DNA of 45,838 bases from a phage (GCA_014143165.1 GCA_014143165.1_4843.1); one strand, 5' to 3'; numbered from the stretch's first letter, positions 17,322 to 22,418 are shown. Translations and numbers: made by a program. Notes: generated from the sequence alone by a model not told the origin.

Positions 17322-19075
<1,754 letters not shown>

Positions 19076-19112
19076 ACTAACCCCTGCTGTTGGTTAACTT
19101 AGGAATTATATC

Positions 19113-20510
19113 ATGCCGAAGAAGATGACTATTGATGAGCTCAAAGAAAAGATTCGTAGCGTTCATGGCGAGACGTATGAGTATGATTTTCATACCTTCC
19201 ATGGCTGCCACTCACCAATGAAAATAGTATGCAAAAAGCATGGGGAATTCTGGCAAAAGCCATCCAAACACCTTCATGGTCAGGGGTGTGCAAAGTGCCA
19301 AAGGGGCGTTATTTCTGTCGATGACTTCAAATCAATGGCCTCCGCTATTCATGACGGGAAATATGACTATAGCAAGGTTTTTTTTGAAGCGTTTTCAAGG
19401 GCAAAGATAACAATCGGATGCCCGATTCATGGGTGGTTTGAGCAATTGGCCTACATTCATCTGAAGAGGGGTAATGGATGCCCAAGGTGTGGAGATGAGA
19501 GATCGAGAAAAGCCAAGTTAAAAAAGTTCAGCAATTTTGTTGATGATGCGAAATACGTCCATGGTGATAAGTATGAGTATTCCCCGAATGGTTTTACTGG
19601 TTCTCGAGGCAAGATTAATATCTTATGTCCTACACATGGTGAGTTTACTCAAGGTGCCGCAAATCACCTGGCTGGTAATGGGTGCCCATCGTGCGCAAGA
19701 GTGATGTCAAACATAGAAGCCGATATCCTTGCATTTGTTAAGTCACTGGACCCACATGTGATCAGCAGGGATAGAGCAACGATAGCACCATATGAACTGG
19801 ATATAGTCTCAAGAGCAAAATCATTAGCCATAGAGGTAAACGGCACATACTGGCACTCGGAGAGGGCTGGGAAAGATAGGTTATATCACAAAATGAAAAG
19901 AGAGATGGTTGAAGAATCTGGGATGAGATTGATAAGCATAAGAAGTGATATATGGAGAGATAAGCGCGAATTAGTAGAGGAAATAATAATTAATGCCATG
20001 GGGGCATCTGAGAGCAGGAAGGTTGACGCAAGAAAGTGCACCATTAAAGATGTATCACCATCTGAATCAAGGGCTTTTCTTGATAGATACCATGTTATGG
20101 GAGGGAGGAATGCCAGTAGGCACTTCGGTTTATTTTGTGGCGGTGAACTGGTATCTGTTATGTCATTTACAGTAAGGAAAGGTTCTGTTGAGTTAGTTAG
20201 ATTCGCATCTAAATGCAATGTTCGTGGTGGGTTAACAAAGATGCTAAAACACTGCTCATCAGTTGTTGGTTTTGATAAGTGTTTCAGCTATGTAGACCTT
20301 GATTTGTTTACCGGTAAATCATACCTCTTAGCTGGCTTTAAAGCTGTAAGCATAAAACCCGGATTCGCGATTGTTAACGGAAATCATGTGGAATCAAGGC
20401 AAAAGTGGAATAAGGCACCTAATGGCATGACTCAGAGCGAATGGTACGAATCTGAAGGCGTAAGCAGGATATGGGATAGCGGACAAATGAGAATAGAGTG
20501 GAGTAAATAG
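19113..20510 (+). CDS. endonuclease-like protein: three tandem zinc-ribbon repeats, PD-(D/E)xK (Vsr-like) core, unknown C-terminal domain
   Basis: Three repeats of C-x2-HG-x-F-x-Q...HL-x-G-x-GCP-x-C; nuclease-like YELDIV...LAIEVNGTYWHSE; about 140-aa C-terminal domain of unknown fold; inserted antisense between structural genes. Confidence 0.55.
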   Translation: MPKKMTIDELKEKIRSVHGETYEYDFHTFHGCHSPMKIVCKKHGEFWQKPSKHLHGQGCAKCQRGVISVDDFKSMASAIHDGKYDYSKVFFEAFSRAKITIGCPIHGWFEQLAYIHLKRGNGCPRCGDERSRKAKLKKFSNFVDDAKYVHGDKYEYSPNGFTGSRGKINILCPTHGEFTQGAANHLAGNGCPSCARVMSNIEADILAFVKSLDPHVISRDRATIAPYELDIVSRAKSLAIEVNGTYWHSERAGKDRLYHKMKREMVEESGMRLISIRSDIWRDKRELVEEIIINAMGASESRKVDARKCTIKDVSPSESRAFLDRYHVMGGRNASRHFGLFCGGELVSVMSFTVRKGSVELVRFASKCNVRGGLTKMLKHCSSVVGFDKCFSYVDLDLFTGKSYLLAGFKAVSIKPGFAIVNGNHVESRQKWNKAPNGMTQSEWYESEGVSRIWDSGQMRIEWSK

Positions 20511-20518
20511 AAAGTAAA

Positions 20519-20543
20519 AGGTGTCATTTGACACCTTTTTTTG
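20519..20543 (+). terminator. rho-independent terminator
   Basis: GGTGTC-ATTTG-ACACC hairpin followed by TTTTTTT. Confidence 0.5.
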
Positions 20544-20856
20544 TGGTCGAATTATAACACAGGGAGATATAGCACCATGAGGCGGTAGCCAGTGCAAATA
20601 ATGGCGAATCGGTGAGTGCGTATAGCGTGAGAAAGTAAGGGATGGGGATTATGTTCATGGGCTACCTCCTGATTAAATGATAGCAGCCCATGATGAACAA
20701 AAGATATACGGTGTTAGTCTGAAATCACATCATCCATGAATGCAAGCGCAGCACCTGAAAGACAGAACAGAGCGCCATAGCAAATCATCTGGTAGAGAGT
20801 GTCAGCCTCAAATACCCTCGCGAATGCGTAAGCGGATAAAATCCACAGTAATGGAA

Positions 20857-21183
20857 TCATAACCCAGCCTCCTGCTTTGCGCGGTGAACGTATGACATAA
20901 ACTTGCCAATTGGCATTTCCTTGCGGATTTGCGCCAGTATCGCCCCGTGAATCATTCTTTCCTCGCCGTAATACAACTTATCAAGTCGAGTTTTAATGAG
21001 TGCTCGCGTACGTTTCATGTGGTCGCGTGCCTTAAGTGCTTTCTCATGCCATACGCGGTCATTCTTCTTATCAGCATATTGCAGTTGGCGTTCAACAGTT
21101 TCGATTTCAAACGCCAGTTGCACGTCATAATCTTCGAGCTGAATGATGTCTGCTTTCATAATGTCGTTTAGTTGGATAATCAT
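20857..21183 (-). CDS. hypothetical early protein
   Basis: 108-aa ORF; overlaps the upstream gene stop. Confidence 0.4.
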   Translation of the reverse strand: MIIQLNDIMKADIIQLEDYDVQLAFEIETVERQLQYADKKNDRVWHEKALKARDHMKRTRALIKTRLDKLYYGEERMIHGAILAQIRKEMPIGKFMSYVHRAKQEAGL

Positions 21184-21557
21184 TTTTTCACCTTTAAGTT
21201 GTGTTTTGTTAATTCATTAATGACATCATTTTGGTCGCACAGCAGCAAATGCATATTGCTTAGGTCAATCTCAATTGCTGCGCGAGATGCTTGCCATGTT
21301 TGCCAGTGACCTTGGACATCATCAATCACATACTGACCACCAACATTACCACTGCCAACCTCGTGGTGATTTTCAGGGTAACGAACAAGGTCTGATTCCT
21401 CACCTCCGCGTCGCAACCAGCTTGTTTCAAACTGCTCTCTACTCGTCATCTTCACTTCCTCCACTATCCATCCCATCTCTTTACGGTTATTGGCAATAAA
21501 CTCATCTGATGTCACAAACAGAGTTCTGCCGGATTTATGCTTAATAGCCCATCTCAT
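21180..21557 (-). CDS. hypothetical early protein
   Basis: 125-aa ORF. Confidence 0.4.
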   Translation of the reverse strand: MRWAIKHKSGRTLFVTSDEFIANNRKEMGWIVEEVKMTSREQFETSWLRRGGEESDLVRYPENHHEVGSGNVGGQYVIDDVQGHWQTWQASRAAIEIDLSNMHLLLCDQNDVINELTKHNLKVKK

Positions 21558-21682: not shown

Positions 21683-22171
21683 TCATACTCTTGCTTCTTG
21701 CGTTTGGCTTTCCCCATAATGACCCCTCACATTGCGAAGAAGTGAATTGAACAGGTTGCTGACGTTAACTTCCTGCTCACGCCACGAATAACGCCACAGC
21801 TTCTTGTGGTGGTCATAGCTTCGCGTCACATCACCGTTATGAAACATGATGCGGATTCTGCTTTTCACGATTCGGTAATCAATACCAGTGGCTACGCTGA
21901 TTTCTTTCACTTCCGCGCCAGCATTATCAAGCAGGTGACACTTAATCGCATCATCAATGCCAGCAGCATCATCAGAGATGAAATATTTATACTGCCACTT
22001 GCCACCACGAATCACTGACTTCTCACGGCGAATGAAGCCAAGAGCAAGCATCTCATGCAAACGATGCGTTGTAGTGCTTGAATGTTTTCCGCTGCAATGC
22101 TTCTCAATGTATGCGCGAGTTGCACCAGGATGATTGATAATCACGCGCATGATTTGTGATTTATAATCCAT
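21683..22171 (-). CDS. putative winged-helix DNA-binding protein
   Basis: ATG at 22171 lies just after the Lar-like stop; product MDYKSQIMRVIINHPGATRAYIEKHC...HRLHEMLALGFIRREK...GGKW has a winged-helix-like pattern. The longer track ORF (to 22336) overlaps the Lar-like gene. Confidence 0.4.
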   Translation of the reverse strand: MDYKSQIMRVIINHPGATRAYIEKHCSGKHSSTTTHRLHEMLALGFIRREKSVIRGGKWQYKYFISDDAAGIDDAIKCHLLDNAGAEVKEISVATGIDYRIVKSRIRIMFHNGDVTRSYDHHKKLWRYSWREQEVNVSNLFNSLLRNVRGHYGESQTQEARV

Positions 22172-22418
22172 AATCGCGTTCCTTTGCTGCATGATTGAAG
22201 TCGTCGGCTGTGTAGAGGTGTCCGTTGCGGGTATTCCATCTTCCCTTTGCGCTACGTAATCTGACGTATTCTTCACTTTTCTTGCCACAATCAAGGCATT
22301 CAATAATCCATCCGTGAGGTACTGCGCAAGGAACAACCCTTAAGCCACCGCAATTATCACACTCTAGCAATCCGTGCTCATTCATCATCGGCATATATGG
22401 CACTGTCATTTTATCCAT
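22161..22418 (-). CDS. Lar-family-like restriction-alleviation zinc-ribbon protein
   Basis: CDNCGG...CLDCGKK zinc ribbon followed by ...AKGRWNTRNG, resembling the Lar pattern (CPFCG...WNRR). Confidence 0.45.
   Translation of the reverse strand: MDKMTVPYMPMMNEHGLLECDNCGGLRVVPCAVPHGWIIECLDCGKKSEEYVRLRSAKGRWNTRNGHLYTADDFNHAAKERDYGL

Follow-up and report, generated by a model that had tools for sequence, protein, structure and literature searches.

The window considered here is the whole of a 45,838-nt stretch of phage DNA (GCA_014143165.1, GCA_014143165.1_4843.1). At 19113..20510 (+) it carries an open reading frame (ORF) of 465 amino acids (aa) with an ATG start, and all the genes that neighbour it are on the minus strand. 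The ORF call on the window agrees in these respects with the original prediction, a note made earlier from the sequence alone, in which a nuclease gene lay opposite in strand to both its neighbours. Judged from its domains and its distribution among related phages, the gene very likely encodes an active, free-standing homing endonuclease of the Hef type (Vsr-like, "EDxHD") and is carried on a self-contained cassette of ~1.46 kb. The GC content of the gene is 42.4%, against a window average of 46% and 48–51% in the neighbouring head genes. The locus comprises the following features.

17789..19075 (−), DUF2213/PHROG 760 head gene, 428 aa, neighbour of the endonuclease gene
18790..20590, near-identical stretch shared by the window and Akira, covering the gene and flanks that appear co-converted
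18950..19075 (−), recoded 5' end of the head gene, first ~42 codons (~125 nt)
18960..18988 (+), sigma-70-type promoter match TCGACA-17 nt-TATAAT, 11/12 to consensus
19076–20539, endonuclease cassette, an insert of 1,464 nt
19076..19112, left junction, with the new ribosome-binding region of the head gene (−) and the AGGA Shine-Dalgarno sequence of the endonuclease gene at 19101–19104 (+)
19113..20510 (+), endonuclease ORF, 465 aa
19113..19700 (+), three tandem DUF723/treble-clef zinc modules, aa 1–66, 67–137 and 138–196
19701..20000 (+), Vsr-like (EDxHD-type) nuclease domain, aa 197–296
20001..20507 (+), Mom-family GNAT domain, aa 297–465, with pocket residues H327, R363, T375, D395 and Y404
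20516..20546 (+), intrinsic terminator, hairpin and T-run
20524..20658 (−), small hydrophobic ORF of 44 aa; the right-hand boundary of the insertion falls at its last codon

Empty and filled alleles at one site

The window phage is a 9NA-like Salmonella siphophage with annotated relatives in the genera Akiravirus and Skatevirus. No phage record searched is identical to the window; the backbone is nearest to IME207 (92% over 81% of the first 25 kb), and the window probably represents an undescribed species of the 9NA-like group. Three records hold the endonuclease protein at >60% identity and IME207 is not among them.

Presence/absence polymorphism among related phages, proposed in the original prediction as a check, is strong and falls at exactly the same site. 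In the empty alleles, a hydrophobic ORF of 40 aa (ending …NSTTN-stop) terminates 13 nt before the ATG of the DUF2213 gene. In the filled alleles, 1,464 nt (19076–20539) stand in place of 19 nt (CGCGTAGCTCCACGGTTAG). The insert enters at the last codon of the small ORF, so that its end changes from …NSTTN-stop to …NSTTKKGVK-stop, and the alignment with the empty alleles picks up again at 20540 (TTTGTGGTCG). On the other side, alignments of filled and empty alleles and direct reading of the sequence place the left junction at 19076..19112, where the insert gives the head gene a new ribosome-binding region. Of 162 records matching the region, three carry the gene, namely Akira, represented twice, and gmqsjt-1. 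To the right of the insert, a stretch of 180 nt is conserved at 90–99% in 150 records, 147 of them empty. Orthologues with 89, 84, 73 and 72% identity are found at exactly the same site in other phage contigs, and the distance between the DUF2213 gene and the endonuclease gene is 37–40 bp in all orthologous loci. More distant homologues occupy other sites and some genomes hold 5–12 copies; the window itself contains no further paralogue. The repeat finder detected no terminal repeats and no target-site duplication around the insert. By eye, the 5' junction (…GGAATTATATC) looks weakly like the 3' junction (…CGAATTATAAC), but this likeness is unsupported and is not claimed.

The insert is strictly linked to a diverged version of the beginning of the head gene. 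Filled and empty alleles are only 56–76% identical over 18950–19075, against ~95% over the rest of the head gene. Thirty of the first 45 head-gene codons differ from those of Skate (20 synonymously, 10 non-synonymously), compared with 68 of 383 in the remainder. Only the three gene-carrying records match this version of the tract at ≥99% identity; in the remaining 195 the figure is 60–80%. The recoded stretch is a candidate for the target and immunity tract, as well as for the carrier of the endonuclease promoter, and the DUF2213 gene is the probable target gene.

The window and Akira differ by ~9 mismatches over the 1,800 nt of 18790–20590 (~0.5%), while both flanks differ by 4–15 per 100 nt. 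An island of identity within diverged flanks is the pattern expected of recent lateral transfer with co-conversion of the flanks, and 18790–20590 is taken to be the recently transferred unit. The ratio of non-synonymous to synonymous substitution (dN/dS) is 0.11–0.26 in all three domains of the protein, that of the Mom-like domain being 0.11. Since all orthologues are full length and dN/dS is low in each domain, the whole protein appears to be functional, tail included. Synonymous divergence is uneven along the gene. Between the window and one orthologous locus (L009) it is 0.31 in the zinc modules and 0.83 in the Mom-like domain; between the window and another (L012) it is 0.16 in the nuclease domain and 0.40 in the zinc modules. 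These differences suggest recombination or domain exchange among endonuclease alleles.

Zinc modules, nuclease core and Mom-like domain

The N-terminal part of the protein is built of three tandem zinc modules, described as zinc ribbons in the original prediction. A Pfam scan recognised DUF723 in three stretches and DUF4379 ("probable treble clef zinc finger") once. The metal motifs, C-x2-H-G-x-F…G-x-G-C-x2-C, are at aa 40–62, 103–126 and 172–194 (nt 19230–19298, 19419–19490 and 19626–19694), and the triplication can still be seen in the DNA, where the repeat finder located three copies spaced by 186 and 210 nt. Across 52 homologues, the set used for all conservation counts below, the zinc-binding Cys and His residues vary little or not at all. 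AF2 models the region with confidence (block means mostly 85–95). The modules presumably form a DNA-binding array.

Profile and structure searches recognise the Vsr-like PD-(D/E)xK core that the original prediction had read from the sequence and assign it to the Vsr-like/EDxHD homing endonucleases. A profile of the 52 homologues matches the catalytic domain of I-Bth0305I (PDB 3r3p) with E=2.1e-7. The candidate catalytic residues are E202, D230, E241, N243, H248, H259 and K262, and of these E202, D230, N243 and H248, which vary little if at all, correspond to E170, D196, N208 and H213 of I-Bth0305I. Four of the five EDxHD residues are thus present, the fifth being a conserved substitution: in this Hef-like clade, H259 (nt 19887) followed by an invariant K262 stands instead of Asp. 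This variant of the signature might indicate an altered use of metal. The full-length protein matches PHROG 559 with E=5e-100, and translated searches found relatives in >950 phage records, many of them annotated as "Hef-like homing endonuclease". The EDxHD family was defined by Taylor et al. (2011), who placed the phage Hef-type endonucleases in it (PMC3239194); the Hef enzyme of phage U5 is described as free-standing and as cutting nrdB, the gene beside it (PMC2988022). The label of HNH endonuclease, attached to PHROG 559 and to some GenBank records, is a misnomer. The Pfam and NCBIfam scans gave no match to an HNH family or motif, the Cys/His motifs are those of the DUF723 treble-clef modules, and the Vsr-like fold is the only nuclease fold found. 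The NCBIfam scan of the protein gave no meaningful match of any kind.

The C-terminal part, thought in the original prediction to be ~140 aa of unknown fold, comprises ~170 aa (297–465) and is a GNAT fold with Mom as the closest solved structure. In structure it is matched best by Mom of phage Mu (PDB 8bv8), to which it is only remotely similar in sequence: hhalign of the domain against Mu Mom gave a probability of 57% and E=1e-4, a single-sequence search against PDB sequences found nothing, and a profile search against them returned generic GNATs only. The link to Mom was reached only by fold comparison, by a profile against Mu Mom (from NC_000929) and through intermediates. The window protein alone does not match the Pfam Mom family (PF25680), yet 8 of 22 family members do, and P0037 scores 28.0 bits against a cut-off of 27.1. 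Two stand-alone proteins, P0214 (46.2 bits) and P0234 (34.8 bits), are above the same threshold and match the window domain with E~1e-16. An exhaustive search with the domain alone gave 11,321 cluster representatives, these two stand-alone proteins included; in most of them the domain is C-terminal in proteins of 400–800 aa.

Mutation of H58, Y59, R111, S124, D149 or Y159 cripples Mom (H48, Y49, R101, S114, D139 and Y149 in the 231-aa numbering), and R111 (R101) is specific to Mom homologues rather than common to GNATs in general (Karambelkar et al., PMC7261163). A 2026 study reports that Mom uses Gly-tRNA(Gly) and that R151 is essential (PMC13219725). In the 241-aa numbering of Mu Mom, these and one further position compare with the window protein and its homologues as follows.

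Mu Mom H58: window H327, 52/52
Mu Mom R111: window R363, 52/52
Mu Mom D149: window D395, 44/52
Mu Mom Y159: window Y404, 50/52
Mu Mom S124: window T375, probable, the loop alignment being ambiguous; S/T in 31/52
Mu Mom Y59: window V328, not kept; I/V/L in the family
Mu Mom W48: not kept in the window protein; variable
Mu Mom R151: window D397, not kept; R in 24 and D in 21 of 52

The position equivalent to R151 (aa 397, nt 20301–20303) divides the family into proteins with "DRRW" (R in 24/52) and proteins with "D-R/L-D-L-F-T-G" (D in 21/52, the window protein included). Each subgroup is internally conserved, and the two may be functionally distinct. Because Asp occupies this position, Mom-type chemistry is disfavoured in the subclade of the window protein; because H327, R363 and Y404 are invariant, or nearly so in the last case, the surface of the pocket appears to be used for something. 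Most economically, the pocket would recognise or flip the target base. The most likely function of the domain is to recognise DNA or to flip adenine; enzymatic modification of DNA is less likely. The original prediction had allowed for a second activity in this part of the protein; the Mom-like fold and the retention of most of the critical Mom residues give that suggestion a sharper form, in which the domain may be an enzyme.

Predicted transcription signals of the cassette

Contrary to the original prediction, which saw no recognisable promoter upstream of the gene, a sigma-70-type sequence with 11 of 12 consensus positions is present at 18960–18988 (+) and is conserved in every filled allele. 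It lies 125 nt upstream of the endonuclease ATG, antisense within the codons of the head gene (...P-L-V-D... and ...I-I-K...). Both hexamers occur in 7/7 filled loci from five diverged lineages and in 0/7 empty alleles, the latter taken from phages of Salmonella, Citrobacter, Klebsiella and Aeromonas, in which the corresponding sequences are TCGCAT, TCCACA or TCYACC and TATAAC, AATAAC or GATGAC. Among the filled lineages, the promoter shows two changes only, both in the spacer, even though the synonymous sites of the endonuclease gene are saturated. The −10 element needs Ile, not Val, at residue 30, and the −35 element needs GTC for Val37, where the empty alleles have GTG or a Cys codon. The embedded promoter would drive the endonuclease gene. 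If it is active, the endonuclease transcript would have a leader of ~117 nt (18995–19112, +) that is fully complementary to the ribosome-binding site and the first ~27 codons of the head gene, and antisense interference with the head-gene mRNA is a possibility.

The gene ends at a terminator, as originally predicted. A hairpin at 20516–20539 (−13.2 kcal/mol, z=−3.6) is followed by a T-run, and the hairpin is kept in all filled lineages by the compensatory change of GGTGTC/GACACC to GGCGTC/GACGCC. The sequence is also hairpin-competent on the minus strand, with a weaker T-tract there. The stop codon of the small ORF in the filled allele is now inside this hairpin. A search for a minus-strand promoter within the cassette, one by which transcription of the head gene might be restored, gave no convincing candidate, the best being a 9/12 match at 20377–20349. 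A second promoter-like match on the plus strand, TTGACA-16-AATTAT (10/12) at 20528–20555, overlaps the terminator and the right junction, is directed antisense into the small ORF and is probably due to chance. An intron- or intein-encoded endonuclease was considered and rejected, since the ORF occupies an intergenic position, is read from the opposite strand and is flanked by a promoter and a terminator of its own; Rfam gave no match at E≤1 across 18300–21300.

Homing as the probable reading, its alternatives and the setting of the locus

The arrangement described above leads to a homing model. The cassette would supply its own promoter, placed in the recoded first ~40 codons of the head gene, together with its own ribosome-binding site and terminator, and host polymerase would transcribe it during infection. 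On co-infection with a relative that lacks the gene, the zinc modules, probably aided by the Mom-like domain, would bind at or close to the point where the small ORF meets the start of the head gene, and the Vsr-like domain would cut the DNA of that relative. We infer both the cleavage and its position. Repair by recombination would then copy the gene with ~300 nt of left flank and ~50–80 nt of right flank. The gene-carrying allele would be immune, since the insert interrupts its site and the linked tract recodes it. The Vsr-like/EDxHD core and the polymorphism of the site support the central idea of the original prediction, a free-standing homing endonuclease whose gene was inserted in antisense at the margin of the head genes. 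That prediction would have been undone by a gene fixed at the same position in all relatives with no homing signature, or by the failure of profile searches to recognise a nuclease motif, and the relatives and the searches gave neither result.

Several observations weigh against the homing model or reduce the force of the evidence for it. The D222 position of the EDxHD motif is His in 52/52 homologues, and kinship with U5 Hef is argued from a chain of annotations together with the statement of Taylor et al. The empty records include many near-identical "seszw" isolates, and the ratio of 3:150 therefore overstates the number of independent samples. Hitch-hiking in a co-converted tract could account for part of the conservation of the promoter block. 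Expression of the head gene should suffer from the 1.4 kb of antisense DNA and the bidirectional terminator that separate it from the small ORF. Finally, a simple homing model has no need of a conserved Mom-like pocket.

Alternatively, the protein could be a modification and restriction enzyme in a single polypeptide, whose Mom-like domain acylates adenines in the phage's own DNA and whose nuclease attacks unmodified DNA of the host or of competitors, mobility being secondary. The Mom-family GNAT domain, its purifying selection (dN/dS 0.11) and the retention of 5/6 critical Mu Mom residues, counting the probable equivalent of S124 and including the Mom-specific Arg (R101/R111, R363 in the window), all speak for such an enzyme. 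Iyer et al. (2021) took the fusion of Mom domains to REase-fold nucleases in jumbo phages to combine modification with restriction (PMC7824862), and relatives of the window protein include those of PA5oct-like jumbo phages with five copies. Nevertheless, the essential R151 is Asp (D397) in the window subclade, Y59 and W48 are not kept, and the distribution is that of a site-specific selfish insert, with 3 of ~150 close relatives carrying it at one site with a linked tract and an island of identity. The occurrence of 5–12 paralogues at different sites of one genome also fits homing better. PADLOC gave only a weak match to "HEase" (homing endonuclease), with E=2e-4, and assignment to a known anti-phage defence component was rejected on the same result. 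The two accounts are not mutually exclusive, and the population-level evidence favours homing over genome-wide restriction and modification; an enzyme of primarily the latter kind seems unlikely here. An intermediate form, in which a true homing endonuclease includes a Mom-like domain that works as an adenine modifier, using charged tRNA, as Mu Mom does, or an acyl-CoA and marking its own site or the carrier genome, may be entertained as a tentative possibility. If it were true, immunity to self-cleavage would come from DNA modification as well as from sequence change, the gene would be a hybrid of a homing endonuclease and a one-polypeptide restriction-modification system, and the literatures on "Hef-like HEG" and "Mom-REase fusion" would be united.

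Two further accounts were considered. A domesticated nuclease would be kept by selection at the level of the phage for the benefits it brings, such as marker exclusion of co-infecting relatives or degradation of host DNA. Purifying selection in all domains over a deep divergence, with synonymous sites saturated between lineages, and the holding of the same site in several lineages would suit domestication, and marker exclusion by free-standing phage endonucleases is known (reviewed in PMC2988022). The gene is rare in close relatives (~2% of records), though, and the island of identity reflects recent lateral spread rather than vertical retention; as marker exclusion follows from homing itself, sequence cannot separate the two, and domestication as the main explanation is improbable. 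The gene might also be a decaying and inactive remnant, no longer mobile. Homing endonuclease genes commonly degenerate after fixation, and the last residue of the motif departs from EDxHD (H259). H259 is itself invariant, however, which makes it a trait of the family and not a sign of decay. The reading frame is intact in 7/7 loci, dN/dS is 0.11–0.26, the catalytic and zinc-ligand residues are invariant or nearly so across the homologues, the promoter and terminator are conserved, and the element is far from fixation, all of which leave decay with hardly any credibility.

As a probable homing cassette, the locus can be compared with known systems. Hef of U5 and the Hef-like enzymes of T4-like, ViI-like/LIMEstone, Campylobacter and jumbo phages are likewise free-standing between conserved genes and are presumed to cut a neighbour; aa ~199–465 of the window protein are 28–44% identical to the Hef-like proteins of KARL-1, CP220, RC-2014 and MEW1, and some Hef-like phages have multiple paralogues in one genome. 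Unlike U5 Hef, the window gene belongs to 9NA-like Salmonella siphophages and would target the DUF2213 head gene, not nrdB, and unlike in the Hef systems, its promoter is embedded in the codons of a neighbour. The catalytic fold and the E, D, N and H residues are shared with I-Bth0305I, and both proteins are modular, with DNA-binding modules N-terminal to the nuclease. I-Bth0305I, however, is intron-encoded, uses NUMOD/HTH modules, ends its motif with D222 and has no C-terminal domain, whereas the window protein is free-standing, with three zinc modules, a Mom-like domain and H259 in place of D222. Mu Mom, a tRNA-dependent adenine N6-carbamoylmethyl transferase of the GNAT superfamily, is matched by the window domain at H58, R111, D149, Y159 and probably S124, and both have an insertion between the last strands; Mom stands alone under the control of Com, whereas the window domain is fused to a nuclease. 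The jumbo-phage Mom-REase fusions (PMC7824862) have the same combination of domains and probably belong to the same protein family, the PA5oct-like phage MIJ3 giving five matches. They were read by Iyer et al. as modification plus restriction, while the population genetics of the window locus point to homing.

Earlier work has already described the family, each of the domain folds and their fusion; the names "Hef-like homing endonuclease" and "Mom-REase fusion" denote one and the same architecture. In the literature searched, no paper mentions "Hef-like" together with GNAT, Mom or DUF723, or links the two explicitly. The main yield of the analysis is thus a corrected and completed annotation for one more protein of a family that is very large. 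As an example of a free-standing homing cassette the locus is unusually clean: empty and filled alleles can be defined exactly, one site is shared by five diverged lineages, and both a linked recoded tract and an island of identity are present. A promoter in the antisense codons of an essential head gene would mean that regulatory signals can travel inside co-converted host sequence. The Salmonella phages also offer a tractable system in which to study the role of a conserved Mom-type pocket in a homing enzyme.

The neighbours of the cassette need some revision. The scaffold gene named in the original prediction is an approximate description, the left neighbour being the DUF2213/PHROG 760 head protein, which has weak similarity to head maturation proteases. 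The early operon is not the immediate neighbour on the right; that place is taken by the 44-aa hydrophobic ORF, which directly precedes the head gene and has GGAGG as its ribosome-binding site; Skate, KFSST1 and K1M have an equivalent ORF, listed there as a hypothetical protein. The operon to the right of the cassette encodes a MarR-like regulator with weak Ren-like exclusion similarity (21683–22336, −) and a Lar-like restriction-alleviation protein (22161–22418, −). In Skate, the counterpart of this operon (window 21683–22418) has received an unrelated HNH endonuclease gene, so the region to the right of the cassette is a hot spot for mobile nucleases.

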